52,182 nucleotides of DNA from an uncultured Anaerolineae bacterium. GTDB taxonomy: Bacteria > Chloroflexota > Anaerolineae > Fen-1058. A program made the position numbers and the translations under genes. Shown here in pieces: positions 3,448-51,908 of this stretch (position 1 is the first letter of the stretch; every line of letters begins with the position of its first letter). The stretch is taken from the NCBI GenBank assembly GCA_964353405.1, contig CAYGWJ010000337.1:1-52182 (forward strand), in the 5' to 3' direction. The notes below the pieces were generated by a model that was given only the letters and a program-made list of their open reading frames with translations, was not told the origin of the DNA and did no database searches.

Positions 3448-4923
3448 ATGTTGACGCGCGCAAGTGCGCATGCGGCGGCTGCAACCATCCTGACCTTGAC
3501 CCTGCTCTTCGGTAAGACAAGCACTGCCTGGGGGACAACTCGAGCGGTCCCACAGCCCGCGCACGCGGTTCCGGGTGCGGCTGCTAACTGGCAGATTCAG
3601 ACGGTCACCACCGCAGGATGCCCCCTCGCCAGTACGCAGGGATTGGCGATCGACAAGACGGGCGCCCCGCACATTGCCTTTAGCTCCTCGGACGGTCTGC
3701 AATACGCCCGGTGGGACAAGACCAATGGTGTGTGGCGCTTTTCAACGGTGGACACCAATGGGCGCGATGCTTCACTTGCACTGGACGCGGCAGGCAATCC
3801 CCGCATCGCCTACATCTATTCTCCCCATAATGAGTTCGACCTGAGATATGCCTACTGGGATGCCAACGCCGGGCGATGGCGAATCCAGACTGTAGATAGC
3901 GGCATCACTCACTATCCCTCGCTCGCGCTGGATGGCCAGGGCGCTCCGCACATCAGCTATGGCGATTGGAATGCGAGCGATTTGAAATACACCTACTGGG
4001 ATAGCAGTGCCAGCCAGTGGCGGACTCGATTGCTCGACAGCGCAGGGGTCGTAGGCCAATGGACGTCAATCAAGCTCGACACTTCCGGCCATCCGCACAT
4101 TGGCTACTATGATCAGACCAATGGGAACCCCAAGTACGCCTACTGGGACGGCGGCAACTGGCATATCGAAACGGTGAGCGATGAACAGTGGGTCATGGGC
4201 ATCTCGCTGGCCGTGGACGGCAGCAACCGCATCCACATGAGCTATGTGGAAGCTGCGCAAGATGTGCTCCGCTACGCTCGCCGCGAGCCCGGCGGTGGGC
4301 CATGGCAAGTTCAAACGTTAGACACCGCTTACGACGAAGCAGCTTGGATCGCGCTGGCGCTGGACAAATCGGGTAATCCGCACATCAGCTATCAGCGTGG
4401 CAATCTGCAGTACACGTATTGGGACACGGGAACAAACGCCTGGAAGGCCGAGACGGTGATCGCAGGATGGCAGTCGGTCTCGGCGCTGGCGCTGGATGGC
4501 CTGGACGATCCGCACATCGTTTTCACCAACAACTATGAATGCAGCGGGCTGATGTACGCGCACAAGGAATCCATTCCCACTCTGCAATTGGGAACTGATC
4601 ATGTAGCGCTTTTGCGGGCTAGTGGAGAAACCAGTCCTACGCTGCTCGCTTTGCCCCTGAACAGCAGCGGCAGCGTCATTACCTGGACGGCCGCCATCAG
4701 CCCAACGGTCGGGTGGCTGAGCTTGACGCCGGTCACCGGCACAACGCCCAGTGTCATCCAGCTTACTTTTAGCCCGACCGGGCTGGGGTTAGGGCGTTAT
4801 GAGGCGCAGGTCGTCATCCAGCCTGCCGATGCTCAGATTGCGTCACGCTCTGTTCCGGTGACGCTGATCATCGCAGAGCATGTATTCGACGTTTACCTTC
4901 CGCTGATCCGGCGCGCCTCCTGA
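3448..4923 (+). CDS. Secreted 7-blade beta-propeller protein with BACON-like domain and C-terminal VYLPLIRR motif
   Basis: AGGAG RBS and signal peptide; seven repeats of (S/A)LALDxxGxPHI(S)Y; WTA...WLSLTPVTGTTPS BACON-like segment. Confidence 0.85.
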   Translation: MLTRASAHAAAATILTLTLLFGKTSTAWGTTRAVPQPAHAVPGAAANWQIQTVTTAGCPLASTQGLAIDKTGAPHIAFSSSDGLQYARWDKTNGVWRFSTVDTNGRDASLALDAAGNPRIAYIYSPHNEFDLRYAYWDANAGRWRIQTVDSGITHYPSLALDGQGAPHISYGDWNASDLKYTYWDSSASQWRTRLLDSAGVVGQWTSIKLDTSGHPHIGYYDQTNGNPKYAYWDGGNWHIETVSDEQWVMGISLAVDGSNRIHMSYVEAAQDVLRYARREPGGGPWQVQTLDTAYDEAAWIALALDKSGNPHISYQRGNLQYTYWDTGTNAWKAETVIAGWQSVSALALDGLDDPHIVFTNNYECSGLMYAHKESIPTLQLGTDHVALLRASGETSPTLLALPLNSSGSVITWTAAISPTVGWLSLTPVTGTTPSVIQLTFSPTGLGLGRYEAQVVIQPADAQIASRSVPVTLIIAEHVFDVYLPLIRRAS

Positions 4924-5018
4924 GTGTGACAGGTGGCGCTGATGAACCCGTGCTGATCGTTTTGGCACTCATGCTCAATGGCGGTCGTTTGAGATGACGC
5001 TTCCCTAGCAGCACATTC

Positions 5019-5082
5019 AGACTTCGGAAGTCGCCAGACGCGCTCCGGTTGGTCTAGGCGCTTCCGGCGACTTCCGAAGTCT
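5019..5082. repeat. REP-like palindrome (agacttcggaagtcgcc...ggcgacttccgaagtct)
   Basis: Perfect 17-bp inverted repeat in the intergenic region. Confidence 0.75.
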
Positions 5083-5112
5083 AAACAGCAACCCAAAAGA
5101 GGAGGAACAAAA

Positions 5113-5967
5113 ATGAAGACAAGAATCGTTCGCACACTTTTGCTCGCTGGCGTTGTAGCTGCCGTCTTGCTCGCGGCCTTTAGTTTGGTCAGCGTGCTCG
5201 GCTCGACTACCAGCGCCAACAATGTCTACAGTCTCCGTGCCCCGTCCTTCGTCGGCGTGGCTAATGCCCAGGGAGCAGGCCCGCAGGCCATCGCCAGCTT
5301 CCTGGATAGCGAAGCCGGCATTTCGGCCTACTTTTCGACCACCGGCCCGATTGACTTGCAAGCGGTCAAGGCCGCTTTCCGCACTATTGAAGTTCAAACC
5401 TCTGATTATATCATCGGCTCGGTAGCGGTTCCAGACTATCCCGAATCCGAAGATGTTCACGTTTACGTTCACAAGAACGGCTGGTTCCTGGCTTACTACC
5501 TTAAAGCAGACCCAACAGGCAAGATTTTTGACTGGCGGCGCTACACTACAAGCGCGATTTCAACTAAGCTTGAAAAGGCGCTGTCTACGGTATCCGTCCT
5601 GATTGGCATAACGTCCTTCACTCCTACCTTCTATGACTTTCGCTACCCTAACGCCAGCACTCTCATGCTGATTGCAGAGGACACCAACAGCGGAAACGAA
5701 TTCCAAGTCAACTTACCCGGCACTTTTACTTATTACGAAAGAAGCTGGTCGCTTGCTAGCAGCATGAGCTCCTGGGCATGTAGCCCCTTGGCACGGTGGA
5801 TGCTCGATAGTATGGAAATAGCGAGGCAACAGCAAGACGGGTATGCGACATCTCAAGGTGGTTTGACAGCAGCTCAACTGACGGCCAATACCTTTCATAC
5901 GGTCACAATACCAGTTCAATGTGGCAGTGCCTGGGGTGGACTTGCGCTCACTTACAGGGTGCCATAA
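5113..5967 (+). CDS. Secreted hypothetical protein
   Basis: GGAGG RBS, strong N-terminal signal/anchor, 284 aa, no family recognised. Confidence 0.8.
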   Translation: MKTRIVRTLLLAGVVAAVLLAAFSLVSVLGSTTSANNVYSLRAPSFVGVANAQGAGPQAIASFLDSEAGISAYFSTTGPIDLQAVKAAFRTIEVQTSDYIIGSVAVPDYPESEDVHVYVHKNGWFLAYYLKADPTGKIFDWRRYTTSAISTKLEKALSTVSVLIGITSFTPTFYDFRYPNASTLMLIAEDTNSGNEFQVNLPGTFTYYERSWSLASSMSSWACSPLARWMLDSMEIARQQQDGYATSQGGLTAAQLTANTFHTVTIPVQCGSAWGGLALTYRVP

Positions 5968-7103
5968 TGAATGCACGCAAACTGACCACAGTGCTAGCTA
6001 TGGCGCTGCTGGTGTTTGCTCTCATCACCGTCGCAGTGCCTGTGGCCGGCACACCTAACGATGACATTATTGTGAACGGCGCTGATGTGATCCGGCAAGA
6101 ATCGGTTGCCCGTTCGCAGGGGCTGATTGACTCGACAACCAACATCGGCGCGCGCATCGTTGCCCAATATGCCAACACGCTGCGGACGATCAACCTGGCG
6201 GCTGTGCCCGGCGCATTCCAAACGCTGCTTGGCCAGGTGCCCAGTCGCATTATCTTTGCATACGCCAACACGAATCGCCAATTTGACCTGGCCTCCGTCC
6301 CAGGCGCGTTCCAAACAGTGTTGGACCTGGTGCCAAACCGGATCATCTTTCAGTATGCCAACACCAATCGGAATCTCCCGCTGGCCTATCCTGCTGCGCT
6401 GATCAACGACGCCACTCCGCCTCAGATCAGCAACGTCAAGGCCAACGCAGTGAGCAACGATACGGCCGCCATCATCTGGACGACCGACGAGTTTGCGAAT
6501 AGCCAGGTCTCCTACGGGGTGCAATCGGGGCAGTATACAGGGACGGCGAGCGACCCGCTCTACGTCAAGCAGCACGTCATCACGCTGACGGAGATGATAC
6601 CCGACACCACGTACTATTATCAGGTCCACAGCGCAGACCAAAGCGGAAACGCCGGCACAGGCCCAGAGAACAGCTTCAAATTCCAGGCCGTGTTCGACAC
6701 GTTGGCGGTTCAGAAATCGGTCGCGCCCACGGGCGAGGTGCAGTATGGCAAGGAACTCACCTACACGCTGGTCATCTCGGCGGCGCAGAGCGCCTCGCTT
6801 GAGCTTTACGACCCGCTGACTGACACAACCTTTGTGCGCTTTGTTCAGCAGCCAACGGGCGTCATCCCCACCCTCCATTCGGTCACCGGCACATTGAACG
6901 TAGCGAGTGCGCTGCCCGTCACCGTTACCTTTGTCGTCCGGGTGGACGTTCCGGCTGTTGCCGGGCAGACCGTTGACGTGATCAACCAGGCTTGCGTCTA
7001 CGTGCTCCCCGACACCAGCACATGTAAACCGTCCAACCAGGTCACCAACCAGGCCTTCGCACCATACCGTGTCTTTTTGCCTGTGATACTCAAGAACCGG
7101 TGA
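5967..7103 (+). CDS. Secreted protein with 31-aa tandem repeats, Fn3-like and DUF11-like domains, and C-terminal VFLPVILK motif
   Basis: TAATG overlap with the upstream gene; signal peptide. DATPPQISNV..WTTDE..SQVSYG..HVITLT..PDTTYYYQV is Fn3-like; LAVQKSVAP..GKELTYTLVI is DUF11-like. Confidence 0.8.
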   Translation: MNARKLTTVLAMALLVFALITVAVPVAGTPNDDIIVNGADVIRQESVARSQGLIDSTTNIGARIVAQYANTLRTINLAAVPGAFQTLLGQVPSRIIFAYANTNRQFDLASVPGAFQTVLDLVPNRIIFQYANTNRNLPLAYPAALINDATPPQISNVKANAVSNDTAAIIWTTDEFANSQVSYGVQSGQYTGTASDPLYVKQHVITLTEMIPDTTYYYQVHSADQSGNAGTGPENSFKFQAVFDTLAVQKSVAPTGEVQYGKELTYTLVISAAQSASLELYDPLTDTTFVRFVQQPTGVIPTLHSVTGTLNVASALPVTVTFVVRVDVPAVAGQTVDVINQACVYVLPDTSTCKPSNQVTNQAFAPYRVFLPVILKNR

Positions 7104-7176
7104 GGGTCAAACGGGACAGCGGGATGTGCCATCACCCGCACACAGCCAGTCAACGGCCCAAACTTGCGAAAATGTG

Positions 7177-7228
7177 GGTGGCAAAAGGTTGTCCGACATA
7201 GCCGCGCTGAACGACAAATAGTTCAACT
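7177..7228 (+). pseudogene. Degenerate duplicate of pgk 3' end (right copy of direct repeat)
   Basis: Reads GGKRLSDIAALNDK*; no upstream pgk body is present. Confidence 0.6.
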
Positions 7229-38240: not shown

Positions 38241-40688
38241 CTAACGCACGGTGACGGACAGCAGGTTGACGTGGTCTGTGGCCGCGCCAGAGGCGAGTTG
38301 AAGCGGCCAACGCGTCATCGTATCCGGCGAATAGACGCCGAGTTCAAGTTGATAAACTCCGGGCGGCGTGTCGGGCTTGATGGGCGCGCGAACATGCTGA
38401 ACGATCACATCGCCGATTTCCAGTCCGCGCAATGCCGTACCCCAGCCATCATATTGGCCGACGATTTGCAATCCGTCACTCGTGACGTGGGCAAAAAACG
38501 CGATAGGCGGCACCAGATCGCCCGTCACGCGCCAATAGGTCGTCAGGTCGAGCGCATCGCCGCGCGCGACGTAGGGCGATTCGATTCGATAGCCGATAAG
38601 CGCAAGCTTGCCATCGAAATCGGCGGGTAGGCCTTGCGGCATGGGTGCGCGCCACTGCGCCAGTTGCGATTCGACCAGTGGTCGCGCATCAACCATGAGC
38701 GCATCGCCGTCCTTTTGTCCGATGGCACGAAAGGTCCGGCGCAAGTCGCGGTCGAACGGCAGTGGATCGGGCGCGATGTAACGCGCCGGGCCGTTCATTG
38801 CAAAAATGAACACGTCGGGGTTGTCGGCCCACTTGACGATGAGGCGATGTCCGGGTGCGACGCCAAGCGTCTGCGGGTTGACGGCATACGCCGGTGTGCT
38901 GACGATTACGGCGCGGTCCATTGGCGTGTTAGCCGCGTAATCTACTTGGTAGATCAGAATCGAATAGCCCGCGCGCGCGATGGGAGTCTTGTCTCGAAAG
39001 TAAGCGAACAAGTCTTGCTCGCGGTAGACCAAGCCCAGGCGCAGGCTGGTGGCGCTGATGGCGTACCAGCCTGGCTCCGGTGAGTAGGGATTGAACGAGT
39101 CCACCTCCGGCCCGATGACAAAGTGCAAAAAGCCGGGCAGCGGCCAGTAGCGCACGCCATAGGCCGCCGGCAAGGCTGTGCCAAAATATGAAAGGTTCAC
39201 AACCTCAATTTCATTCTCATCCATCCACGCTTTGAGCGCGGGCAAGTCCTGTCCCCAATCCAGGTTCGAGTCCACGAGGATGTTGTGCGCGTTGACTGGT
39301 CCACCGGCTAGTTCATTAAAGTATGAGAGGTGATGAGGAAAGATCAGGACTGTGCTTATCATTTGCCACAGGAAGATAAGGAGACACGCGCCGCTGGACA
39401 AGGTGACAAGGTGAGATTTGAAATTTGAAATTTGAGATTTGAAATTTGCTGTGTTGCCCGCGAGGATGATGACGAACGGCAGAACAGGCAGGATATGCCG
39501 GTAGCCGATGGTCAACGGGCTGAACATGGCGGCGGCCATTGCAAAGGCAGGGGGAATCCACGCGGCCGATGTGCGTTGCCAAATGCGCTTGCTTGCGATG
39601 ACGATGATGCCGACGACAAGAAGGATCAGTGTGGGCAGGGGTGTCTTGAGCGCCAAGGTCACGGGAAAGTAGTACCACCAGCCAGTGCGGCTCACCTGAC
39701 CCATCAGGAACGTTGGGTAGCCTTGTGAGTATTCGGCGTAAACCTTGGCGAGTCCGCGCCAGTAGGTTGCAGCGGGCAGACCGTTGCGGATCTCAAAGCC
39801 ATACACGGCCCAGATGACGAGGAGCGCAATGAGACCTGCGATCGTGAGGGCGAGCAGCCGCTGAAATCTCGTCGCGACACCCAGTCTGTCACTCTGAGCC
39901 GCCGAGCGGCGAAGGGTCACTGTCCTGCGAGAAGGAGATTCTTCGCCGCTTCGCGGCTCAGAATGACAAGGCTGTGTAGAATAGAGCGACGCTTCGCTGC
40001 TTCGCGGCTCAGAATGACAAGGCTTTGTAGGATAGAGCGACGCTGCAAACACAAACATCGGCGCAAGCACGAGTCCGGTGAACTTGGTCCCCATCGCCGC
40101 GCCCGCCGCCACGCCGACCCACACCAGATTCCATCGCGTCGGTTTTTTCAGCCAGGCCCACAGTCGCCACATCGCAATCGTCATTGTGGCGGCCAGGCCC
40201 AGGTCGGTCGTCGAGAGACGCGAGTGGGCGATGAGGTTCGGGTCGAATGCGTACAGCGCCAGCGCGAGGAGGGCGGCGTTGAGGCCGAACAAGTCACGTG
40301 TGAAGCGGAATACGACCGCACCCAGCAGCACGCCCAGCGCGATGATGGGCAAGCGGCCTAGCAGGACCAGCCGCACCGCAATGTCGGAATTGGCTTGCCA
40401 GAGGAACGCATCGCCAAAATCGTCGGGCACGGCGTTTTGCCACGCGGGTATGTCAATCGGCAATGTGGGTTTGAGGAACTCGAGCGGCAGCGCGTTCCAC
40501 ACGTTTACCAGCGGCGGATGCTCGGTCGCAAGGCGCGGGTCGCCTGTGCGGAGATAGGCATAGCCTGCTGCCAGGTGATACTCTTCATCAAACGCCGCCG
40601 AGTTGGCCGGCGAGCCGAGCGCGGCTTGCGCGGCGAAGAGGATAAGCAAGAGTGCGGCGAGTAGGATGTGCCAGGGTTTCAAATGCAA
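38241..40688 (-). CDS. GT39/ArnT-like glycosyltransferase with C-terminal Ig-like domain
   Basis: AFDEEYHL.AGY, EHPPL, KFTG, YFNEL.GG, DSNLDWGQD; contains in-frame repeat insertions. Confidence 0.9.
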   Translation of the reverse strand: MHLKPWHILLAALLLILFAAQAALGSPANSAAFDEEYHLAAGYAYLRTGDPRLATEHPPLVNVWNALPLEFLKPTLPIDIPAWQNAVPDDFGDAFLWQANSDIAVRLVLLGRLPIIALGVLLGAVVFRFTRDLFGLNAALLALALYAFDPNLIAHSRLSTTDLGLAATMTIAMWRLWAWLKKPTRWNLVWVGVAAGAAMGTKFTGLVLAPMFVFAASLYPTKPCHSEPRSSEASLYSTQPCHSEPRSGEESPSRRTVTLRRSAAQSDRLGVATRFQRLLALTIAGLIALLVIWAVYGFEIRNGLPAATYWRGLAKVYAEYSQGYPTFLMGQVSRTGWWYYFPVTLALKTPLPTLILLVVGIIVIASKRIWQRTSAAWIPPAFAMAAAMFSPLTIGYRHILPVLPFVIILAGNTANFKSQISNFKSHLVTLSSGACLLIFLWQMISTVLIFPHHLSYFNELAGGPVNAHNILVDSNLDWGQDLPALKAWMDENEIEVVNLSYFGTALPAAYGVRYWPLPGFLHFVIGPEVDSFNPYSPEPGWYAISATSLRLGLVYREQDLFAYFRDKTPIARAGYSILIYQVDYAANTPMDRAVIVSTPAYAVNPQTLGVAPGHRLIVKWADNPDVFIFAMNGPARYIAPDPLPFDRDLRRTFRAIGQKDGDALMVDARPLVESQLAQWRAPMPQGLPADFDGKLALIGYRIESPYVARGDALDLTTYWRVTGDLVPPIAFFAHVTSDGLQIVGQYDGWGTALRGLEIGDVIVQHVRAPIKPDTPPGVYQLELGVYSPDTMTRWPLQLASGAATDHVNLLSVTVR
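39397..39448. repeat. In-frame octamer and heptamer tandem repeats
   Basis: (gacaaggt)x2 followed by ga(g/a)attt heptamers; encodes NFKSQISNFKSHLVTLS. The same heptamer family occurs at 31-55. Confidence 0.75.
39887..40042. repeat. In-frame REP-like TGTCA..TGACA palindrome plus 51-bp tandem duplication
   Basis: tgtcactctgagccgccgagcggcgaagggtc...gattcttcgccgcttcgcggctcagaatgaca; 39941-39991 is near-duplicated at 39992-40042; sibling element at 50123-50209. Confidence 0.85.
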
Positions 40689-40819: not shown

Positions 40820-41851
40820 TTATTGAATAGGTTCAAGGATTGCTTTTGCAGGTGGACGCCAAAAATCAAGCAGGTATTCGAATGTCGTTCCCATCGTAAT
40901 ATAGTTCGAGGGCCACCCAAAGATACCGATCCGGTTCACGATGTTGGTGCGATCCCAAATGATCGTATTCCGCAGTTCATATCCGCGTCGTCGCAGCTCT
41001 TGCACTAATGCAACGTGAATTGTGATCCGCTGATTCTCCCACCACATATCCGGCACGTTAATGACACAATGCGCTTTTGGCTTCAAGAGGGGCAGCAATT
41101 GCTCAAAGATTTCTCCCATTGCCGCAGTATATTGTTCCAGCGGCAGCGTTCCAAGATCACGCGCGTCTTGAGAATATTGTTCCACCTTGCCAAGTTGATC
41201 GTTTTTCCGTTCATCGCCACGCCGCGATTTATTCTTGCGCTTTCGATTCAATAGATTCGCGTAGGGTGGTGAAGTCCATATCAAACTCACTGTTTCATGT
41301 GCTATATAACGAGGAATATAAAGCGCGTCATCCTGTAGGGCAATCTGTTGAGCCTGATTGCAGGAATTGTTACTGGCCAGTCGTTCGACACATAGATCAA
41401 CATACTTTTCCTGCAAATCGAATCCGACGGCATTCCTATTGAGGTCTTGTGCTGCAACCAGTGTTGTGCCACTGCCTACGAAAGGGTCCAGAACCAATTC
41501 GCCTTCATGTGTGAATAGCTCAATTATTTTCCTTGCAAGTGCGATTGGAAAAGTGGCTGGGTGTTTCTCTTTATCTCGGACATCGCGCTTCTCATATGAG
41601 AATTGCCATACGCCTAACTGACTCTTTATCCATTCTTTTGCCGTCATGCAATTCAAGTGGTTGGCAGGATGTTCGCAAGTTCTTGTATAGCCGATGTTGA
41701 GGCAAGCTCGATGCAGACCACTCGCTTCCTTGATAGCGCGTGGCAAACCAGTGTCTTGAGGGAATATTTCTTTTCCTGCTTTTGGTGTTGCGGGCTCTTC
41801 TTTCGGAGAATCCGATCTCTTTGGCACTGTCTTACTCGATTTCCCAGACAT
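40820..41851 (-). CDS. Orphan amino-DNA methyltransferase (probably N4-cytosine)
   Basis: HPATFP, LDPFVGSGTT (motif I) precedes WTSPPY (motif IV); visibly AT-richer than flanks; start 41851 or 41860. Confidence 0.9.
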   Translation of the reverse strand: MSGKSSKTVPKRSDSPKEEPATPKAGKEIFPQDTGLPRAIKEASGLHRACLNIGYTRTCEHPANHLNCMTAKEWIKSQLGVWQFSYEKRDVRDKEKHPATFPIALARKIIELFTHEGELVLDPFVGSGTTLVAAQDLNRNAVGFDLQEKYVDLCVERLASNNSCNQAQQIALQDDALYIPRYIAHETVSLIWTSPPYANLLNRKRKNKSRRGDERKNDQLGKVEQYSQDARDLGTLPLEQYTAAMGEIFEQLLPLLKPKAHCVINVPDMWWENQRITIHVALVQELRRRGYELRNTIIWDRTNIVNRIGIFGWPSNYITMGTTFEYLLDFWRPPAKAILEPIQ

Positions 41852-42068
41852 GTTCTTCATCTTGAATGTCGTCAATTTCACTATCTGGCTTGGCATCCCA
41901 CAACCAGGATCTAGCACCATCCTCGTTCTTAATCTCAACTGTTGTTAGGCCAAGCTTGCTGTCATTCTCAAGAGCAATGGCTTGTCGTTCAGCATCGTGA
42001 TAGTCCTGAGCTTCTATCCTTCGCTTGAGAATGACCACCCTGGCATAAGTGAGTGTAAAAGTCGGCAC
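41832..42068 (-). CDS. Small acidic hypothetical protein (78 aa)
   Basis: GAGGAG RBS then GTG; MPTFTLTYARVV...EHVWEIE; overlaps the MTase start. Confidence 0.55.
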   Translation of the reverse strand: MPTFTLTYARVVILKRRIEAQDYHDAERQAIALENDSKLGLTTVEIKNEDGARSWLWDAKPDSEIDDIQDEEHVWEIE

Positions 42069-42196: not shown

Positions 42197-42231
42197 TAAA
42201 AGCGGCGCGAGGTGATTTGCCTCGCGCCGCT
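42197..42231 (-). terminator. Intrinsic terminator after the A2M gene
   Basis: agcggcgcgagg-N7-cctcgcgccgct with an A-run on the left. Confidence 0.75.
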
Positions 42232-42278
42232 CCACTCTACTCTCCACGCTCAACGCTCTAGAGCGGTTTCCTGATCAG

Positions 42279-42377: not shown

Positions 42378-45300
42378 TCACGGCCTTGCTTGCACGCTAA
42401 CCAGTGACGGTGGCTGGAGGCCGGAGACGTCGGGATTGTAGTAATCGTACACCGACGACGGCGGCGCTTGCGCCTTGAGCGGGAACTTGGCCCGCAGCCG
42501 ATACCCAAAGCTGATCTTGTAATCCAGGTTCTCCATGTACAGGATAATCTGCGAACCGGTCAGCTCGTAGCGGCGCACCTTGGTGGCAAGCTGGCTGCTC
42601 TGGCTCACGAGCGCGTCCAGATCCTCGCTCAGCACGTCAAAGCCGGGCGGCACGCCCAGGTCAACGATGGCCCATTGCACCTTGGCGTTCTTGTTGAGCG
42701 TAATGTCCACCTTTGCCGTCATCTCGTCGCCCACGAACAAGTTGGCGTTGTCATACGTCACCTTGACCTCCACCGGCGGTTGAGCCGGAGCGGTCGCGAT
42801 TGACCACGGCACGTAAGCGGAGGTTGTGACCTGGTACATCAGGTTCTCGGTGTTCGAGCCGCTGACGCGCAGGCTCACGCGATTGTCGCCCGATTGCACG
42901 TCGTCAAAGGCGACGACGTGCACCACGTCGGCGTTCTCGGACGTGAGACGCACGGTCTGCGGCGTTCTCCCGTTGAGCGAGACGCTCACCGTCGCATCGG
43001 GCTGTGGCTTGTCTGTGCTCGACGCGGCCAGCAGCGCCTTGAGCGAAAGGATGGTGGCTTGCGTGGACTCCCACGTGCCAAAGCTGTCCTTGGAGCGCGT
43101 GAGGAAGCGCAGGCCCGCTTGAGCCAGGTCGTGGTTGCTCTTGCCGCTCACGAGCGCCTGCGTTGCCAGCGCAGACGTTTCAATGTCGGCCACGTTGCCC
43201 GAAGCGCCCGTGAACGATTGGGCGCGGGCCGTCCAGCGCGCGGTGTCTTGCTCGCGCGTCGCGAACGACGCCAGCTTGGTGAGCGCGGGTTGGGCCGTGC
43301 TGTCACTGGCCGCCGTCAGCGCGTTGGCGACGAGCGCCAGCGTGTACGCATCGTCGGCCTCGCTCCAACGCGAGCGCAGATACGAGAGCGCGCGCTGCGT
43401 GCCAGACTCGTTCCCATAGCCCGCTTCGATCAGCGCCCACGTGATATAGGCCGTGGTGGGCAGCTTGTCGTTCTTGAGCGTCGTCCAGCTTTCCATATAG
43501 CCCGCCGAGCCTTGGCCGCCCCACGATCCGTCGCCGCTTTGTTGACCCAGCAGCCAGCGCGCGGTGCGCTCGATCACGGCGCCATCCACCGCGTACACGT
43601 GCTGCATGTCCGAAAACTCCATCAGCCCATACGCGGTGTGCATCAACGTGGCGGGCGGATTGCCGAACAGACTGAACCCGCCGCCCTCGACTTCATACGT
43701 GAGCAGGCGTTGATAACCGGCCGCGATGTAGGTCTGCGCCTTCATCCGAACTTGCGGCGCGGCGCGGCCCGTGCGATTGAGATAGTCCAGGATCAACACA
43801 TCCGGGTAGAGCGTGGACAAAGTCTGCTCGAAGCAGCCATCGGGCATCCGCAGCAGCGCGTCCAGTCCTTCGACGATTTGCGCAGATGCGCCCGCATAGA
43901 CTTTGACTTGTATGCGCGCGGTTCCATTGATCGCTTGCGCTGGAACGACGACGGTCGCTTCGGTGTCCCCGGTCAACAGGTCGCTGGTCGAGCTACGCAC
44001 CTGCGTGCCGTTCGGCGCCACGCGCACATCTTTGGCGATGGCATCGGACATGGCCGTGCCTCGACCGGTGACGGTCATCCGGCCCAGTCCGAACTGCTTG
44101 ACGCGGATGCGAAAGTAGACCACGTCAATGTCGTTCGCGCCGATGGTGATCGTCTTGGTCTGGTCGTCCATCAGATCGAACCACTCGGCGGACGCAAGCT
44201 CCAACTTGACTTGCTGTGATTCAGGCAGATAGTTGTACACGGCCACAGGCACGGCCACTTCGTCATCCACCGTCAACTGCACGGGCAGGTCGAGGTCAAT
44301 AAAGAAATCCTGGAACACACGCAAGCCGTAGGTCTGTGAGCCGATCTGCCCGTTCTGCGTCGAAGCGAGCGCCGTGAGCCGCCAGGTAGTGATGCTATCG
44401 GCCAGTGGCACGTCGAGCTTTAAACGTCCGTCTTGGTCGGTGAGGGCTTCAGGATTCCAGTACATGGTTTCCGGGAAGAACTGACGCAAGCGCACCGGCT
44501 CGGCAGGCGCGGCTTGACCAGCGGGCTTGGCGACTTGAACTGTTGGCTGTGCTGCGGGCGCTTGGGTCGGCGCGGGTGCGCGGGTGGGCGCTGCTGCCGC
44601 GGGCGCACTGGTTGCAGCCGCCGGAATTTTGGGGTTTGCTTGTCTATCAAATGCCCCAGGCGTTGCTGCCGGGCTACAACCGGCCAGCCAACCGACCGGC
44701 CCGGCGTAGGCCACCGGATTGCCGAGCGTGCGCACAAACAGCGAGTGCGACCCGCTTAGCGCTGCTGTGATGACGATGGGCAGCCACAGGAAGCCGACGA
44801 GCGTAGAGGCCCACGCGGCCGGGCGTTTGCCTTCCAGGCGCAATCCTTGTCCAAAGATCACCAGCACCAAGATCATCCCGGCGAACGTCACGATCGTCCA
44901 TGTCAACGCGCGGCCTTTCAGGTCGCCGCCGTTTTCGGCCACGTAAGCCATCAGCACGCCGAGCAGCGTGTAGGCCATCGTGAGGCCGGTCATCAACTGC
45001 GCGCGCGGGTCCTCGTTGCGCCAGGCATAGATCGCAAAAGCAATCCACGCGGACAGCCAGACCAGCGCGGCCAGGATCACGGCCAGCGGGCCCAAGATCG
45101 CGTTGGCGCTCCACAGTCCAATGTACAGGCCGATGGCGCAGAATGGCGCGGCCAGGATGGCCAGGAGCGACCACTTGCCGACCGTGCGCATGGCTTTGCC
45201 CAGCACGCCGCTCGGGCGCAGTCCCCAGATGAGGACGATGAGCGCGAGGAGGGGCAGAATGATGAGCGTCTTGCTCAGCGTGCCGGAAAGCTGGATGAAA

Positions 45301-47588
45301 GCTTTTACCTTTTGACTCGCCAGGTCGGACAGCTTTTCAAGACGCGAACGGATGTCGAACGCCAGGTTGGTGACGGGGCTGCCCACCCATGAAGCCTTGG
45401 CGGCTTTATCCTGCGCCTGGATCACTTGCGGCGGCGTCGAGGCCGAAAGCAGCGTCGGCACGTCAAAACCTTTGACGTCCACCTTAGGTTCGAGCAATTC
45501 CTTTTCGAGCAAAAAGTAGAGCCTGGCAAAGCCGGGCGCCTGATCTTGAACGGCAAAGACAGATTCGTCCACGATGCCGATGCCTAGCGCGCTCTGAATC
45601 GGCTGGCCGCCCTGCAGCGTCGTCGTCATCGCCATGCGCGCCGTCTGGCCGGGGCGATACACGTCATGGTCGGCGCCAATGCCCACGTTCACTTCTTGCG
45701 CCTGATCTATCACAACCAGCCGCGTGTCACGCGCGAGGCCGGTACCCGGCATGACGACGTAAGCATGTAATTCGAGCGTGCCGAACATGGCCGTGTCCAG
45801 GTCAACTGCCAAGACCGCGCGACCATCTTTGATCGGCGCGCTGAACGCGGCGATGGTCTGTTGGTCTTTAACCAGATCAAGGTAGATTGCGCCGGACTGG
45901 ACGGTGGTCAACACTTCGGCCTTGAGCGTCTCGCCCACGCGATAGGCGGCGCGCTCGGTGCGGAGCAGCACTGTTCCGGCGCCAGCTTCGGTGTTGAGGT
46001 TGACGGTCTTGCGCGCCGATGCGCCGGTATTGTCCTGCGCGCTGATGTCGAGCGTCGTTCCTGTAGACGACGTGGGGACGAAGCGATATTCGGCCAGTCC
46101 ATATTCACCGGTCTGTAGGGGCGGGGTTACCCCGCCCCGAGCGTCATTAACGTTCACCGTCGCTTTGGCCGGGCGTCCATCGGGATATGAGACGAGGAGG
46201 TAGACAATGTTCTCCACACCCGGGCGCAGCGTGCCGCTTTCGGCAACAGCGTCAATCACCAGCGGGTCGCGCGCGATGGTGAGCACCTGGCTCACTTGTT
46301 CGCGGTGCTCGGCCTGATCAATGACCGCCACTTGCAGATCAAAGGTTGCTGTGCCCTTGTCGCCCGCGATGGCCAGCGGCGGCAGGTTGAACTCAAAGTG
46401 GAATTGTCCCTGGGCATTGGTCTGCCCAAAGAGCTCAACGGTCTGGCGGCGATTCGGGTCATATGTGTACCCATGCAGCTCAACGCGCGCTTCGGACGTG
46501 GGCTTGCCGAAAAAGTAGTCGGCCTGCACCTCACCTTTGACGCGCGCCCCGGGCGAATAGTACGGTCGGTCAGTCTCGATATTCACCTTGAACTTGGGCA
46601 ACACATACGGCTTGACCTCGACGCTGCGCTCGCTGGTCGTGTCGCCCAGCACGGCTTGCAGGTTGTACTTGCCGGTGATGAGCTGCGAGGCCAGTTGGAA
46701 ATCAGCGCTGGCGATGCCAAAGGCCGACGTGTTGACTTGTTGCCGGAAGACTTTGTCGCCGTTTGGATTGCTGGCGATGAACTCGATCCCCTGGCTGGCG
46801 ACGGCGTGATGGTCGAACGCATTCAGCGCCAGCGCGCGCAGGTGGATCATCTGGCCGGGCTGATAGATGGGCTTGTCGGTAGAGAGGTACAGCTTGTACG
46901 AGCGCTTGATCTGCACCGGGCGCTCGATATGATCTTGCCCCAGCGACGAACGGGTCCGCACGACGAGCGTGGCTTTGCCTTCCATGTCCGCCGGAATGTC
47001 AAGCGAGACGTTGGCCGAGCCGGTCGTGTCGGTCTTGCCGTTGTAGACGACGGGAGCTTGCGCACTTGTGAGTGTTACATTGACATCGGCTCCCGCGATG
47101 GGTTGACCGTCGCTCACCTTGCGCACGACGACACGCACACTGGCCGGGCTGCCGGGCGCGAATTGATCCTGGCCCATCACAATCGTCTCTTGATCGTCGG
47201 CGCGCGCGGTGAACGTCGTCGCGTTCCACGCGGCCACGCTAAAGATCGCCACGAGCAGCGCCAGCGTCGCCTGCGCCAGCGCATAGCGCCTTTTCACGAG
47301 CGGCTGGAACAGCTCGGCCAGGTTCACCAACAGCCCACGCAGCGAAGGGCGGTTTTGCTCGGCGCGGATGCGCTCGCGGGTGCGGACGCTGGCGGCATCG
47401 TTCAGCTTGACCTTCGACATGCGCGTCTTGAACGTGGTGTCCACATCGGCGTGAAACGATTGTGCGAGCGCCAGTTCCCCGCGGCACGACTCGCACTCGT
47501 CCAGGTGCGCCTTGACGCGCGAGGTCTCCTCCGGCGAAAGCGCGCCGTCGAGATAGGCAATGAGGTCTTGCGTCACATGACCCTTCAT
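42378..47588 (-). CDS. Zinc-finger anti-sigma (ZAS) / alpha-2-macroglobulin thioester protein fusion with internal 6-TM bundle
   Basis: YLDGALSPEE..HLDECESC (HxxxCxxC), then a TM. A2M motifs: TDKPIYQPGQ, YVLPKF, VDES, FFPET, DSITTW, FQDFFIDLDLP, MPDGCFEQT thioester, DLGVPPGF, VYDYYNP. Confidence 0.92.
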   Translation of the reverse strand: MKGHVTQDLIAYLDGALSPEETSRVKAHLDECESCRGELALAQSFHADVDTTFKTRMSKVKLNDAASVRTRERIRAEQNRPSLRGLLVNLAELFQPLVKRRYALAQATLALLVAIFSVAAWNATTFTARADDQETIVMGQDQFAPGSPASVRVVVRKVSDGQPIAGADVNVTLTSAQAPVVYNGKTDTTGSANVSLDIPADMEGKATLVVRTRSSLGQDHIERPVQIKRSYKLYLSTDKPIYQPGQMIHLRALALNAFDHHAVASQGIEFIASNPNGDKVFRQQVNTSAFGIASADFQLASQLITGKYNLQAVLGDTTSERSVEVKPYVLPKFKVNIETDRPYYSPGARVKGEVQADYFFGKPTSEARVELHGYTYDPNRRQTVELFGQTNAQGQFHFEFNLPPLAIAGDKGTATFDLQVAVIDQAEHREQVSQVLTIARDPLVIDAVAESGTLRPGVENIVYLLVSYPDGRPAKATVNVNDARGGVTPPLQTGEYGLAEYRFVPTSSTGTTLDISAQDNTGASARKTVNLNTEAGAGTVLLRTERAAYRVGETLKAEVLTTVQSGAIYLDLVKDQQTIAAFSAPIKDGRAVLAVDLDTAMFGTLELHAYVVMPGTGLARDTRLVVIDQAQEVNVGIGADHDVYRPGQTARMAMTTTLQGGQPIQSALGIGIVDESVFAVQDQAPGFARLYFLLEKELLEPKVDVKGFDVPTLLSASTPPQVIQAQDKAAKASWVGSPVTNLAFDIRSRLEKLSDLASQKVKAFIQLSGTLSKTLIILPLLALIVLIWGLRPSGVLGKAMRTVGKWSLLAILAAPFCAIGLYIGLWSANAILGPLAVILAALVWLSAWIAFAIYAWRNEDPRAQLMTGLTMAYTLLGVLMAYVAENGGDLKGRALTWTIVTFAGMILVLVIFGQGLRLEGKRPAAWASTLVGFLWLPIVITAALSGSHSLFVRTLGNPVAYAGPVGWLAGCSPAATPGAFDRQANPKIPAAATSAPAAAAPTRAPAPTQAPAAQPTVQVAKPAGQAAPAEPVRLRQFFPETMYWNPEALTDQDGRLKLDVPLADSITTWRLTALASTQNGQIGSQTYGLRVFQDFFIDLDLPVQLTVDDEVAVPVAVYNYLPESQQVKLELASAEWFDLMDDQTKTITIGANDIDVVYFRIRVKQFGLGRMTVTGRGTAMSDAIAKDVRVAPNGTQVRSSTSDLLTGDTEATVVVPAQAINGTARIQVKVYAGASAQIVEGLDALLRMPDGCFEQTLSTLYPDVLILDYLNRTGRAAPQVRMKAQTYIAAGYQRLLTYEVEGGGFSLFGNPPATLMHTAYGLMEFSDMQHVYAVDGAVIERTARWLLGQQSGDGSWGGQGSAGYMESWTTLKNDKLPTTAYITWALIEAGYGNESGTQRALSYLRSRWSEADDAYTLALVANALTAASDSTAQPALTKLASFATREQDTARWTARAQSFTGASGNVADIETSALATQALVSGKSNHDLAQAGLRFLTRSKDSFGTWESTQATILSLKALLAASSTDKPQPDATVSVSLNGRTPQTVRLTSENADVVHVVAFDDVQSGDNRVSLRVSGSNTENLMYQVTTSAYVPWSIATAPAQPPVEVKVTYDNANLFVGDEMTAKVDITLNKNAKVQWAIVDLGVPPGFDVLSEDLDALVSQSSQLATKVRRYELTGSQIILYMENLDYKISFGYRLRAKFPLKAQAPPSSVYDYYNPDVSGLQPPSLVSVQARP

Positions 47589-48196
47589 AGTTCCACCCCC
47601 GTACCCGTAGAGACGGCCCGCCGGGCCGTCTCTACCCGGGCCGTCTCTACCACAGGTGAGAGGCTTTTCTGCAAGGCCTGGTGCGCGTAAAACAGCCGCG
47701 ACTTGACCGTGCCCTGGCTGATGCTCAATGCCTCGGCGATCTCATCGTAGGCGAGGTCGGATAGATAACGCAACGCGATGATCTCTCGCTGCGCGTCGGG
47801 CAAGCCATCCACTGCCTGCCAGATCGCATCGCGCATCTCGCGCTTGAGCGCCGAGTGTTCGGGGTCGCCGTTGACGCCTGCGACCAGCTCGTCGGCCAGC
47901 TCGTCCCAGTCGGCAGAAGGCGGACGTTTGCGCCTGAAGCGGCTGCGGCAGCGGTTGACGGTGATGCGATACAGCCACGTCTCGAACCGCGCCGGGCCGT
48001 CTAGCTTGAAGCGCGGCAGGGCGTGAAGGAGATCGAGGAACGTCTCTTGCGTGGCTTCTTCGGCATCACCGCTGTTGCGGGTGACAAAGAACGCCACGCG
48101 ATAGACATAGTCCTTGTACCGCTCGAACAGCGCGTCGAACGCGCCGGGCTGGCCGCGTTGAAAGCGGCGGATAAGGTCATCGGTGGCAACAGGCAT
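47585..48196 (-). CDS. ECF RNA polymerase sigma factor
   Basis: AFDALFERY, DAEEATQETF, FETWLYRITVN, LPDAQREIIALRY..LAYDEIAEAL.ISQGTVKSRL; GGGGAGG RBS; ATGA overlap with the anti-sigma fusion. Confidence 0.96.
   Translation of the reverse strand: MPVATDDLIRRFQRGQPGAFDALFERYKDYVYRVAFFVTRNSGDAEEATQETFLDLLHALPRFKLDGPARFETWLYRITVNRCRSRFRRKRPPSADWDELADELVAGVNGDPEHSALKREMRDAIWQAVDGLPDAQREIIALRYLSDLAYDEIAEALSISQGTVKSRLFYAHQALQKSLSPVVETARVETARRAVSTGTGVEL
47607..47650. repeat. GTAG-type REP palindrome plus half copy inside the sigma factor 3' end
   Basis: gtagagacggcccg-c-cgggccgtctctac perfect 14-bp IR, then ccgggccgtctctac; encodes VETARVETARRAVST. Confidence 0.85.
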
Positions 48197-48262: not shown

Positions 48263-48354
48263 TTTCAGTATATGCCCACTTTTGGGGATTGACAAGCCCC
48301 TTAATTCGGAGTAAAACCATTACGGAGCTAAGTGGGCAACCTGGCCCGGCGCGG

Positions 48355-48445: not shown

Positions 48446-50119
48446 ATGAAGACCCGCTTGATGCTTAATATCTTATTCGCCGTCATATCTGTTGCCGTGT
48501 TGATTCTCCCTGCCTGTGCGCCTGCGGCAACGCCCGCGCCGGTTCAGGTGCAGAGCAAGCCCGGTGCCACGTCAGCACCCGCACAAGCTCCCAGAGCCGC
48601 CCAGCCGACCCAGGCGCCCGCCGCGCCCGGTGCGTTCGCTGCGACGCCTATCCCCGTCGCCGTGGTGCGCCGGCCAGGCTCCGGTGGACAGGTGATCGTG
48701 ACGCCCTCGTATCAAACGCCCAACCCCGACTTGCCGCCCGAGTCCTGGCCGGCCGACATGTTCTTCAGGCAGTATGGCGTCAACCCGCTGATGGACACCC
48801 AGGAGGAGCACCTCTCTACCTTCGCGATGGATGTGGACACGGCCTCGTACACCTTGATGCGCAAGTACATCACCGATGGCCGCCTGCCGCCGCCCGAATC
48901 CGTCCGCGTGGAAGAGTACGTCAACTACTTTAACTATGACTATCCTGGGCCGGAAACGGGTGCGTTCGCGATTCATCTCGAAGGCGCTCCATCGCCTTTC
49001 CGCGAGGGATACTATGTACTGCGTGTCGGCCTGCAAGGCAAGCGCATTGACGCTTCCCAGCGCAAGGACGCCGTGCTGACTTTCCTGATTGACGTGTCCG
49101 GTTCGATGGGCGACAACAACAAGCTGGAGACGGTCAAGCAGGCATTGGGCATGTTGGTCAATGAACTGCGCCCGACTGATATGGTTGGCATTGTCGTCTT
49201 TACCACGCAGGCGCGTGAGGTGCTACAGCCTACGCCCGCTTCGGAAAAAAGCCGCATCATGTCCGTCATCAATAGCCTGCGACCAGAGAATTCTACCAAC
49301 GTGCAAGATGGATTGACGCTGGCATACAAGATGGCCTCGCGCGCCTATCGCAAGGGCTTGATCAACCACGTGGTTCTGTGCTCCGATGGCGTCGCCAACG
49401 TCGCTGGCACGAGTGCGGATACGATTCTCGCGCAGGCCAAGGAATATGCCACACGCGACATTACCCTTTCGACCGTTGGCGTAGGTATGGGGAATTACAA
49501 CGATGTGATCCTGGAGCAATTGGCTGACAAAGGCAATGGCAACTATTCCTACGTGGACACACTCGAACAGGCGCACCGCGTGTTCGTGGAGAACTTGACC
49601 GGCACCCTGCAAGTCATCGCCAAGGATGCCAAAGTGCAGGTGGATTTCAATCCCGCCGTCGTCAGCCGCTTCCGCCTGATCGGATACGAGAACCGCGCGA
49701 TTGAGAATAAGGACTTTCGCAACGACACGGTGGACGCGGGCGAGGTCGGCGCAGGGCACAACGTTACCGCTCTGTACGAGGTCAAGTTCAAGGATGAGGT
49801 TCCGTCGAGCCAGCAGGGCAACGCGCTGATCGTGTACGTGCGGTATCAGGATATCGAGACCAGCCAGGTGCGTGAGATCAACCAGACATTTGGTCGCACG
49901 CAATTCGCCGGCTCGTTCGATGTGACTTCGCCGCGCTTCAAGCTGGCCGCCGCCGTGGCCGAATATGCCGAGATTCTGCGCAGCAGCTACTGGGCCAGAG
50001 GTTCGAGCCTGGAGAGTGTTCAAGGTCTGGCTCAGAGAGTGCGGCCGGCTTTGCCAAACGACCAGGACGTGGCCGAGTTCGCGCAACTCGTCAGCCGCGC
50101 CAGCCAGTTGCGCAAATAA
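48446..50119 (+). CDS. YfbK-like vWA lipoprotein (vWF_A + VWA + DUF3520)
   Basis: Lipobox LPAC; STFAMDVDTASY, VRVEEYVNYF.YDY, MIDAS DVSGSM, SDGVAN, IAKDAKVQVDFNP, LIGYENR, DAGEVGAGH.VTALYE. Confidence 0.95.
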   Translation: MKTRLMLNILFAVISVAVLILPACAPAATPAPVQVQSKPGATSAPAQAPRAAQPTQAPAAPGAFAATPIPVAVVRRPGSGGQVIVTPSYQTPNPDLPPESWPADMFFRQYGVNPLMDTQEEHLSTFAMDVDTASYTLMRKYITDGRLPPPESVRVEEYVNYFNYDYPGPETGAFAIHLEGAPSPFREGYYVLRVGLQGKRIDASQRKDAVLTFLIDVSGSMGDNNKLETVKQALGMLVNELRPTDMVGIVVFTTQAREVLQPTPASEKSRIMSVINSLRPENSTNVQDGLTLAYKMASRAYRKGLINHVVLCSDGVANVAGTSADTILAQAKEYATRDITLSTVGVGMGNYNDVILEQLADKGNGNYSYVDTLEQAHRVFVENLTGTLQVIAKDAKVQVDFNPAVVSRFRLIGYENRAIENKDFRNDTVDAGEVGAGHNVTALYEVKFKDEVPSSQQGNALIVYVRYQDIETSQVREINQTFGRTQFAGSFDVTSPRFKLAAAVAEYAEILRSSYWARGSSLESVQGLAQRVRPALPNDQDVAEFAQLVSRASQLRK

Positions 50120-50270: not shown

Positions 50271-51908
50271 CTAGTAATCCATCCCGCCACCGGGCGGCAT
50301 CTGAGGCATTTCCTTCTTCTCAGGAATGTCGGTGATGAGCGCTTCGGTGGTGAGAATCATGGCGGCGATGGACGCGGCGTTCTGCACGGCGCTGCGCGTG
50401 ACCTTGGCCGGGTCAATGATGCCGCGCTTGACCAGGTCGGTGTATTCCTGCGCCATCACATCGTAGCCAATGTTCTTGTTCTTTTCTTCCTTCTGCCTGC
50501 TACGAATGTTCTCGAGGACGACGGCGCCGTCCATGCCGGCGTTCTCGACGATGCCCTTGAGCGGGGCTTCCAGCGCGCGGCGCACGATGTTGACGCCCGT
50601 CTGCTCGTCATCGTATTCCATCTTGACTTTATCGAGCACGATAGCCGCGTTGATGAGCGCCACGCCGCCGCCGACCACGATGCCTTCCTCAACTGCGGCG
50701 CGCGTCGCGGACAGCGCGTCTTCCACGCGGTGCTTCTTTTCCTTCAGCTCGACCTCGGTGCCCGCGCCCACGCGGACGATGGCGACGCCACCCGCCAGCT
50801 TGGCCAGCCGCTCTTGCAGCTTTTCCTTGTCATAGTCGCTGGTGGTGTTTTCCATCTCAGCCTTGATCTGCTCGATGCGGCCCTTGATGGCGGAAACCTT
50901 GCCAGCGCCGTCGATAATCGTCGTGTTATCCTTGTCGGCCACGACTTTGCCGGCGTGGCCCAGGTCTTCGAGCGTCACGGATTCGAGCTTGCGGCCCAGT
51001 TCTTCGGTGATGACCGTGCCGCCGGTCAGGACGGCAATGTCTTCCAGCATGGCCTTGCGGCGATCACCAAAGCCCGGCGCCTTGACGGCCAGCAGGTTGA
51101 ACATACCGCGCAGCTTGTTCAGCACGAGCGTCGCCAGAGCTTCGCCGTCCAGGTCTTCGGCGATGACGACGCAATCGCGCTTGCCCTTCTGGACGAGCTT
51201 TTCCAAGATCGGCACAATATCGCTGGCAGCCGAAATCTTTTTGTCGTGAATGAGGATGTAAGGCTCTTCGAGGACGGCTTCCATCGTCTCGGGGCTGGTG
51301 ACGAAATACGGGCTGATATAGCCGCGGTCAAACTGCATACCCTCGACGTATTCCTTCTCGAAGGCGAGGCCCTTGCTCTCTTCCACGGTGATGACGCCGT
51401 CCTTGCCAACCTTGTCCATCACTTCGGCGATGAGGTCGCCGATTTCACTGTCGGCGGCGGAGATGGAGGCGACGTGCGCGATGTCATTCTTGTCGTTGAC
51501 GGAGACGGATTGCTTCTTGAGCGAAGCCACTACCGCTTCGGTCGCGGCTTCGATGCCGTGCTTGATCAGCATCGGGTTCGCGCCCGCGGCGACCATCTTC
51601 AAGCCTTCGTTCACGATGGTCTGCGCCAGAACGGTCGCAGTCGTGGTGCCGTCACCGGCGACGTCGTTGGTCTTGGTGGCGGCTTCCTTGAGAAGCTGCG
51701 CGCCCATATTCTCGTACGGGTCCTTGAGTTCGATTTCCTTCGCAACGGTGACGCCGTCGTGCGTGACGGTGGGGGCGCCGAATTTCTTGTCGAGTGCAAC
51801 GTTGCGGCCTTTGGGGCCAAGCGTCGTGGCCACCGCAAAGGCCAGGGTGTCAATACCGGTCTTTAGTTTTCTTCGAGCTTCTTCGCTGAAAACGAGTTGC
51901 TTTGCCAT
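50271..51908 (-). CDS. groEL: Chaperonin GroEL
   Basis: [47 protein letters not shown]. Confidence 0.99.

Follow-up and report, generated by a model that had tools for sequence, protein, structure and literature searches.

The proteins of the A2M/TEP/complement superfamily are known as soluble or peripherally tethered traps. CD109, A2M, A2ML1 and TEP1 are built around a ring of macroglobulin (MG) domains, with a bait placed at a split in MG6, and they carry a thioester domain (TED) with a G-C-x-E-Q motif and a receptor-binding domain (RBD); CD109 is also membrane-tethered, in this case by a C-terminal glycosylphosphatidylinositol anchor, and its bait is a soluble loop. In the complement proteins C3, C4 and C5, a helical domain (ANA) and a chain-processing site occupy this point of the ring; ANA itself is small and soluble, a bundle set free as a mediator. 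Among bacteria, ECAM/YfhM from Escherichia coli, the A2M from Salmonella and MagD from Pseudomonas are monomeric protease traps held at the membrane by an N-terminal lipid anchor; they have a soluble bait and domains of the bMG type, and ECAM shows a CxEQ thioester. On the other hand, the zf-HC2 (ZAS-type) anti-sigma factors (RsiW, RsrA-like) have an N-terminal H-x3-C-x2-C motif and one transmembrane (TM) helix, and are co-transcribed with the gene of an extracytoplasmic function (ECF) sigma factor. Here we describe P0001, a protein encoded in a stretch of 52,182 nucleotides (hereafter the window; contig CAYGWJ010000337.1 of an uncultured Anaerolineae bacterium of the Chloroflexota). P0001 is of the A2M/TEP type; its bait site holds a membrane module that is specific to its family, and the protein is here fused to an anti-sigma domain. 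In the literature searched, no member of the superfamily was found to be described as an integral membrane protein or as wired to a transcription factor.

P0001 has 1736 residues and is encoded on the minus strand by an open reading frame (ORF) at positions 42378–47588, present as one copy in the window's genome; all the features of the protein given below lie on that strand. The order of the Pfam domains along it is zf-HC2, MG4/MG2/MG3, A2M_BRD (residues 542–679), A2M (1041–1131), TED_complement and A2M_recep. The zf-HC2 domain (residues 5–36, 47481–47576; PF13490, 4.9e-11, above cut-off) has its H-x3-C-x2-C motif as HLDECESC in the translation; the scores of the NCBIfam anti-sigma models on P0001 were far below their cut-offs. 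A first helix, TM0 (residues ~103–122, 47223–47282), was located by hydropathy, charge counts and AlphaFold2 (AF2). It leads to the half-ring MG1–MG6a (45552–47201), which includes MG4, MG2, MG3 and the A2M_BRD match, was recognised with Pfam, with the beta strands of the AF2 model and with Foldseek, and has a VDES motif (residue 673, nucleotide 45572) at its end. The second half of the protein starts at an FFPET motif (residue 1037, nucleotide 44480), which opens the MG6b/MG7 region with the A2M domain (1037–1131, 44196–44480; PF00207, 1.8e-22). It continues with the TED (1238–1519, 43032–43877; PF07678, 4.7e-45), where the thioester motif is G-C-F-E-Q at 1251–1255 (CFEQ from 1252) and the thioester Cys codon is TGC at 43835–43833, and ends in a receptor-binding, MG8-type domain (1639–1721, 42426–42674; PF07677, 4.6e-11).

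The matches to MG4, MG2, MG3, A2M_BRD and A2M are all above the Pfam cut-offs; domains of the bMG type appear below cut-off only, P0001 being closer to the eukaryote-type models. The nearest solved relatives by sequence are CD109, A2ML1, human A2M, TEP1 and C3/C4/C5, and the best phmmer match to the CD109–A2M group has an E value of 8e-68. Likewise, when the AF2 model of residues 1–1200 (pLDDT, the predicted local distance difference test, of 82.2) was searched with Foldseek, CD109, C4b, C3 and A2ML1 were retrieved at E 5e-39 to 1e-35 over ~1110–1150 columns; ECAM of E. coli ranked 44th (E 3e-30). P0001 thus shares with the CD109 group the MG ring, the split in MG6, the thioester motif, the TED and the RBD; in contrast to P0001, that group is not known to have a cytoplasmic regulatory domain or TM helices at the bait, and the bacterial lipid-anchored traps lack both a TM insert and an anti-sigma domain.

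The membrane module lies between VDES and FFPET, where a reading made from the letters of the window (the sequence-only reading) had noticed six hydrophobic helices, and their presence was confirmed by three lines of evidence. Using the Kyte-Doolittle scale with a window of 19 residues, and taking a mean of at least 1.6 as a peak, P0001 shows seven hydrophobic peaks, one at residues 101–127 and six within 767–947, the latter with means of 1.64–2.53. An AF2 prediction of residues 740–975 from a 61-row alignment reached a mean pLDDT of 90.5 and a predicted template modelling score (pTM) of 0.82; it contains long helices at 748–790, 796–832, 835–857, 861–885, 893–918 and 922–944, followed by three short ones at 950–968, and the model of residues 1–1200, in which beta-sandwich MG domains flank the bundle on both sides, agrees. 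The third line comes from relatives, collected by searching the region 660–1140 against 5.8 billion proteins; this yielded 1579 matches at E <=0.001 among 8000 scored candidates, and P0001 together with the best 120 of these 1579 matches make up the set of 121 proteins used in what follows. Six peaks are found at the equivalent place in 120 of the 121, and P0015 shows five at the threshold used; the six-helix pattern is more than chance. The stretch originally singled out (44755–45270) corresponds to residues 773–945, the hydrophobic core, so that the helices stood while their extent had to be widened: the module spans residues 748–968 (45347–44685), and within it the six-helix bundle covers 748–944 (44757–45347). 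It is preceded by a portion of the bait-region domain (680–747, 45348–45551) with a helix, seen in the alignment and in the AF2 model, that bears the conserved residues Q726, A730, A732 and W734.

Conserved positions of the bundle are Pro779, Leu790, Ala872, Gly913, Gly915 and Pro937, and its cytoplasmic loops carry the conserved motifs W-R-x-R-D-x-R and G-x-G-L-x-x-E-G-x-R. No conserved polar or charged residue was found within the six helix cores; positions 854, 885 and 914, at helix ends, reach 33–40%. A comparison of helices 1–3 with helices 4–6 by hhalign revealed no internal 3+3 duplication (probability 0.2%). The bundle alone gave only noise against Pfam and NCBIfam (DUF5931 at E 0.2 and MSC_0624_12TM at E 0.016, far below the cut-offs), no Foldseek match at E <=0.001 in the Protein Data Bank (PDB) and no usable match in the ESM Atlas, and phmmer with residues 497–1063 found no match among the PDB sequences; the best VIA-align wide hits, with a Z of 9.9, were designed or soluble helical repeats inside the stated background for helical models. 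When the bundle was searched with phmmer against 1.84 billion representative sequences, 53 matches were obtained, none of them a stand-alone membrane protein; 52 of them follow P0001 collinearly within an A2M context, the short ones being fragments, and the remaining one, P0155, was discounted as a repetitive hydrophobic match with no BLAST alignment. Overall, the bundle looks more like a structural or coupling module than like an enzyme or a transporter.

The orientation of the module can be deduced from its loops. In P0001 basic residues follow helices 1, 3 and 5 (RPSGVLGKAMR, RNEDPR and RLEGKRP), as had been pointed out, and the pattern holds across the 121 proteins, where the mean number of Lys plus Arg is 3.8, 2.8 and 1.9 for the loops 1–2, 3–4 and 5–6, and 0.5 and 0.76 for the loops 2–3 and 4–5. 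With six helices and, by the positive-inside rule, inside loops after helices 1, 3 and 5, both ends of the bundle should face the MG/thioester side; as for the N-terminus, it is predicted to be inside because the zf-HC2 domain and a stretch rich in Lys and Arg precede the helix at 103–122. A topology with seven spans, N-in and C-out, in which both A2M halves are extracytoplasmic, is therefore strongly supported by the sequences, in line with the proposal that the MG ring and the thioester half both lie outside the membrane. An odd number of helices would have left the TED in the cytoplasm; six were counted. A complex prediction of TM0 (88–135) with the bundle (740–975) gave a score of 0.01, which says nothing either way.

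The place of the insertion was examined by alignment with proteins of known structure. RLRQFFPET in P0001 corresponds in the alignment to HVRKHFPETW of CD109 (residue 706), and FFPET is also aligned to residue 12 of the C3b alpha' chain; the segment just before these positions is the bait in the former and ANA in the latter. These alignments support the view that the bundle occupies the insertion point of the A2M bait and the C3 ANA domain, as the sequence-only reading had placed it, with the difference that the P0001 insert is a hydrophobic six-helix membrane bundle. Insert-less A2Ms from the same phylum (L033–L035) also bear this out; they have the same domain order, the motif RQ[YF]FPETW and a GCGEQ thioester motif, are 1387–1511 residues long, and show just one hydrophobic stretch at the N-terminus, in the place of the TM anchor of the window's family (an extra hydrophobic peak occurs in one of the three), and a soluble segment of ~60–80 residues where P0001 has residues 748–1030. 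The N-terminal stretch of L034 is clearly the signal peptide of a lipoprotein, with LVGC as its lipobox. They are among the A2M-like proteins of ~1400 residues encoded by other Chloroflexota genomes, in which the profile positions that flank the insert are only ~57 codons apart.

After helix 6 the chain of P0001 follows the motif R-x-L-G-N-P-x-x-Y-x-G-P-x-G-W-L-A-G-C (residues 945–971, 44676–44756), as defined from the alignments, with a lipobox-like end: LAGC at residues 968–971 matches the lipobox rule. Of the 121 proteins, 107 have a Cys at the end of the corresponding tetrad, and in 90 of the 107 it conforms to [LVI][ASTVI][GAS]C. Cys971 is invariant in two 61-row alignments, whose rows were chosen as Cys-bearing, and is the sole invariant Cys in residues 1–1200. 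It lies 27 residues past the end of helix 6, behind the conserved Gly/Pro-rich motif, which is not the canonical placement of a signal peptide, and P0001 is not classed as a lipoprotein, given that its putative lipobox is internal instead of directly after an N-terminal hydrophobic core. As a separate observation, the lipobox-like motif appears to have moved from the N-terminus, as in L034, to behind the bundle in the window's family.

Beyond Cys971 there is a hypervariable linker rich in Pro, Ala and Thr (residues 972–1030, 44499–44675), and predicted disorder (pLDDT <50) spans residues 970–1028. From the Cys to P-R-L-R-Q-F-F-P-E-T it measures 64 residues in P0001 and 35–123 (median 57) in the 103 rows with both landmarks; across these 103 relatives its composition is 24% Ala, 19% Pro, 9% Thr and 9% Glu. 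This linker, and not the bundle, is the predicted counterpart of the bait, and it would be the cleavable part. The idea that the bundle itself is the bait region has therefore to be amended: the bundle is at the bait position, and the bait is not wholly replaced, since the disordered linker comes after it. In the same way, a bait tethered to the membrane can be retained in the sense that the linker is held at its N-terminal end. When homologous proteins are compared, it is the linker that varies, the bundle being conserved.

All the named records of this family are from the Chloroflexota (Anaerolineae, Thermoflexales or 'Chloroflexi'), and the loci obtained from the species-genome collection are, in 20 of 20 cases, from metagenome-assembled genomes of this phylum. 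Of 301 sampled genomes from the window's class, 27 match the bundle segment at E <=0.001, the weakest few being doubtful. The bundle is thus standard in a large database family; nevertheless, full-text literature searches, with subscription journals outside their reach, found no published description of a membrane-bundle A2M architecture. Several architectures coexist within the family. Relatives without zf-HC2 begin with a plain N-in signal-anchor helix, and GCFEQ is retained in 36 of the 37 relatives of at least 1500 residues. A genuinely short zf-HC2 form (P0031–P0041 and similar; loci L001, L002 and L006) has ~1160–1200 residues and ends after MG7 with ...M-S-D-A-V-A-R-E-V-T-V-E-P; it keeps the bundle and the lipobox-like Cys, has no thioester domain and is followed by unrelated genes.

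The anti-sigma domain of P0001 is accompanied by a sigma factor gene. The gene directly upstream (47585–48196, minus strand) encodes an ECF sigma factor of 203 residues (Sigma70_r2, 7.8e-19; r4_2, 1.5e-14; Sigma70_ECF, 4.3e-11; TIGR02937, 1.1e-33), and its stop codon overlaps the start of the A2M gene as ATGA; a GGAGG, noted as a ribosome-binding site, stands before its own ATG. Upstream of the sigma gene there is a match to a sigma-70-like promoter, TTGTCA-17-TATACT (48267–48295, minus strand), a consensus match only, of which four were found in the region versus 1.5 expected. About 145 nucleotides past the stop codon of the A2M gene, a sequence scan detected a terminator-like hairpin of 14 pairs with a T-rich tail (42199–42233, minus strand). 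Given the ATGA overlap and the promoter-like and terminator-like sites that bracket both genes, these look like one operon. In this respect P0001 resembles the zf-HC2 anti-sigma factors, with their H-x3-C-x2-C motif, TM helix and ECF sigma gene, and differs from those single-pass proteins in having a 1600-residue extracytoplasmic A2M and six more TM helices. A homologous ECF sigma gene is directly upstream in L001–L006, all with the zf-HC2 form, and ~2.4 kb upstream in L008; on the contrary, no sigma gene was found ahead of the A2M gene in the 12 loci that lack zf-HC2 and have complete flanks (L007, L009–L016 and L018–L020, L017 being left out of the count as a locus without upstream DNA). No conserved downstream partner gene was found in L001, L002, L005, L006 and L008. 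At L005 (nucleotides 3657–7212) the zf-HC2 homologue is found in two ORFs of 656 and 506 residues, the break falling just before the pre-bundle segment (query 658/666), which could be a frameshift or a real split.

A FastTree phylogeny, which took in 100 of the 121 rows after 21 truncated at either end were dropped, grouped the zf-HC2 forms essentially in one clade of 30 rows, with two state changes. From this clustering it is indicated that the bundle is ancestral to the family and that the anti-sigma fusion came later, in the clade of the window.

Another aspect of this family concerns the thioester position. The chain breaks off at ...P-x-G, just one residue short of the thioester Cys, in 61 of the 121 proteins, none of which has zf-HC2; for instance, P0084 (1166 residues) is 92% identical to P0091 (1647 residues) and stops exactly before this Cys. 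The next codon is TGA in all 12 such loci that were read at the DNA level (L009, L011, L013–L020, L025 and L026; e.g., nucleotide 7420 in L019), and the frame past the TGA reads F-E-Q and remains open for 388–492 codons, or for 168–230 where the locus ends. tblastn aligned the TGA loci to P0001 through the TGA point. A hairpin, ACGUC-N3-GACGU, is present 14 nucleotides downstream of the TGA in the 12 loci and absent from the five Cys-codon genes read, that of the window included, which encode nearly the same peptide over this region with other codons; covariation is seen in a single pair, within coding sequence, and hence the structure is not proven. As for the selenocysteine machinery, genomes of the TGA type contain SelA (3 of 3), a selenocysteine tRNA of at least 67 bits (5 of 5) and the SelB wing domain (4 of 5). 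SelA is also found in one Cys-form genome (L010, with a TGT codon), and the window's genome has a match to the selenocysteine tRNA of 72.5 bits, with SelA not found in its 91%-complete assembly, so the choice between selenocysteine and Cys does not cleanly track the presence of the machinery. The pattern fits a candidate selenocysteine at the thioester position. A label of 'TED absent' based on length was dropped, because most short entries are cut at the in-frame TGA; about half of the database entries of the family are truncated by annotation at these TGA variants. A literature search on selenocysteine together with macroglobulin found nothing relevant. If the TGA does encode selenocysteine, this would be the first selenoester-type reactive centre in the A2M/TEP/complement superfamily.

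Taking these features together, we propose, at what we regard as even chances, that P0001 is a membrane-stapled surface protease trap that doubles as a sensor for an ECF sigma factor. P0001 would serve as anti-sigma factor to the product of the sigma gene just upstream. By its architecture and topology, which are strongly supported, its zf-HC2 domain lies in the cytoplasm and one TM helix leads out to the MG1–MG6a half-ring. At the bait/ANA site the six-helix bundle passes in and out of the membrane three times, and the chain exits outside via the L-A-G-C motif, followed by the disordered linker of ~60 residues and by MG6b–MG7–CUB–TED–RBD, so that the membrane holds the protein both near its N-terminus and in the middle of the chain. 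The linker would be the working bait; a foreign protease at the cell surface would cut it, and a rearrangement of the A2M type would expose the thioester and capture the protease on the membrane. In the anti-sigma clade, the constraint between helix 6 and MG6b would be lost by the cut. The bundle and TM0 would relay this change, whether by direct coupling or by turning the protein into a target of regulated proteolysis, after which the ECF sigma factor would be released and its regulon switched on. That the bait is cut, that the thioester captures the protease and that the sigma factor is let go is inferred from what A2M proteins and zf-HC2 anti-sigma factors are known to do; transmembrane signalling, which the sequence-only reading had attached to a membrane-tethered bait, is plausible only because the protein is fused to an anti-sigma domain and its gene is coupled to that of the ECF sigma factor.

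Several points speak against this sensor model. By a motif test, 78 of the 121 proteins carry the bundle without an anti-sigma domain, and it is also found in 17 proteins with zf-HC2 whose chain stops after MG7, so that the thioester domain is missing; its primary role can therefore be neither sigma signalling nor thioester capture as such. A cut in the linker would leave an N-terminal chain with ~650 extracytoplasmic residues and seven TM helices, and a remnant like this is not the usual substrate of site-2 proteases such as RseP or RasP. Finally, the linker resembles the ordinary Pro/Ala/Thr tethers of the lipoproteins of this genome, where a regular expression picked out 127 candidate N-terminal lipoproteins with lipoboxes such as LAAC, LSAC and LAGC followed by an Ala/Pro/Thr tether, and may be a spacer and not a bait.

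That the bundle occurs whether or not the anti-sigma domain is there, and whether or not there is a thioester domain, would be readily accounted for if it only fixes the A2M flat on the membrane, with the bait near the lipid; nothing would then be transmitted, and in the fused clade the sigma factor would simply be sequestered until turnover of the whole protein frees it. The lack of conserved polar residues in the membrane cores, and of a match to any known signalling fold, agree with a passive anchor of this kind. However, six helices with conserved cytoplasmic loops and a conserved exit motif far exceed what an anchor needs; TM0 already anchors every member, and the insert-less relatives manage with one lipid anchor. 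We regard this explanation as unlikely.

The exit motif admits a different interpretation, namely that LAGC, beyond helix 6, serves as a substrate site for Lgt and perhaps also for LspA; Cys971 would then be lipidated and the chain might be split. The products would be a seven-TM anti-sigma/MG1–6 chain and a lipid-anchored chain with the linker, MG6b and the TED, held together in the MG ring, in a manner comparable to the beta/alpha processing of C3 at the same site; such processing can coexist with the sensor model. In its favour are the frequency and the form of the Cys-ended tetrad and the invariance of Cys971 described above, the start of predicted disorder exactly at residue 970, and the residues after the Cys (Ser, Ala or Gly, then a run of Pro, Ala and Thr), which are like the mature N-termini of the 127 predicted lipoproteins. 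Like a signal peptide, helix 6 runs from in to out with a basic loop before it, and the insert-less relatives bear a lipobox at the N-terminus instead. The genome also has the enzymes, with two LspA (PF01252) and four Lgt (PF01790) matches, all above cut-offs, which represent two LspA and at least three Lgt homologues. Against it are the 27 residues and the Gly/Pro-rich motif between helix 6 and the Cys, at odds with a canonical signal peptide, and the 14 relatives of the 121 without a Cys; we know of no established case of internal lipobox processing in a polytopic protein. Overall, internal processing seems unlikely to us. An extended version, in which helix 6 and L-A-G-C would act as an internal signal peptide, lipidation and a cut by Lgt/LspA at Cys971 would give a two-chain surface receptor, a bait cut would free the thioester chain from its lipid anchor, with covalent capture of the protease and a rearrangement that releases the ECF sigma factor, and selenocysteine would be the reactive residue in sister lineages, is decidedly improbable. 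If true, it would amount to a bacterial complement-like, protease-sensing signal pathway. In any event, the conserved internal lipobox makes testable the long-held rule that lipoproteins are processed at N-termini only.

Six-helix bundles are common in transporters and intramembrane proteases, and the fold of this bundle is without an assigned family, from which it could be argued that it is a transporter, a channel or an intramembrane enzyme, with the A2M scaffold as a lid or for substrate recognition. As noted above for the bundle, however, its helix cores lack conserved Asp, Glu, His, Ser, Asn or Gln and it has no 3+3 repeat, the Pfam and NCBIfam matches are noise, and the best structural Z of 9.9 is helical background; this makes a catalytic or transport role highly improbable. 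That the helices form a soluble, ANA-like domain, as the helical domain of C3/C4/C5 aligned at the same insertion point might suggest, or that the ORF is an assembly or fusion artefact, can be practically dismissed, since all six helices have mean hydropathies of 1.64–2.53 with no conserved polar face and the charge alternation holds in the 121 proteins, while the same architecture on many independent contigs excludes the artefact.

Other genes surround the putative operon. An N6/N4 DNA methylase ORF (40820–41938, minus strand; PF01555, 3e-33) lies in a stretch with a GC content of 0.46–0.47 (41000–42000) against ~0.62 around it; this stretch, just past the A2M terminator, may be a foreign insert. 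A divergent gene at 48446–50119 (plus strand) encodes a vWF_A/VWA/YfbK_C protein of 557 residues; it was considered as part of the system and rejected, since it recurs near the A2M gene in only one of 26 loci (L012, upstream). Further away are a PMT_2-type glycosyltransferase of 815 residues (38241–40688, minus strand) and a Cpn60/GroEL-type chaperonin of 545 residues (50271–51908, minus strand), and nothing ties either gene to the A2M operon.

If the proposed sensor model holds, the family would show how a cell converts the cleavage of a bait into gene expression, and ECF sigma signalling would gain a new type of input. The insertion site in MG6, home of the bait in A2M and of ANA in C3, would also be shown to accommodate a membrane domain.

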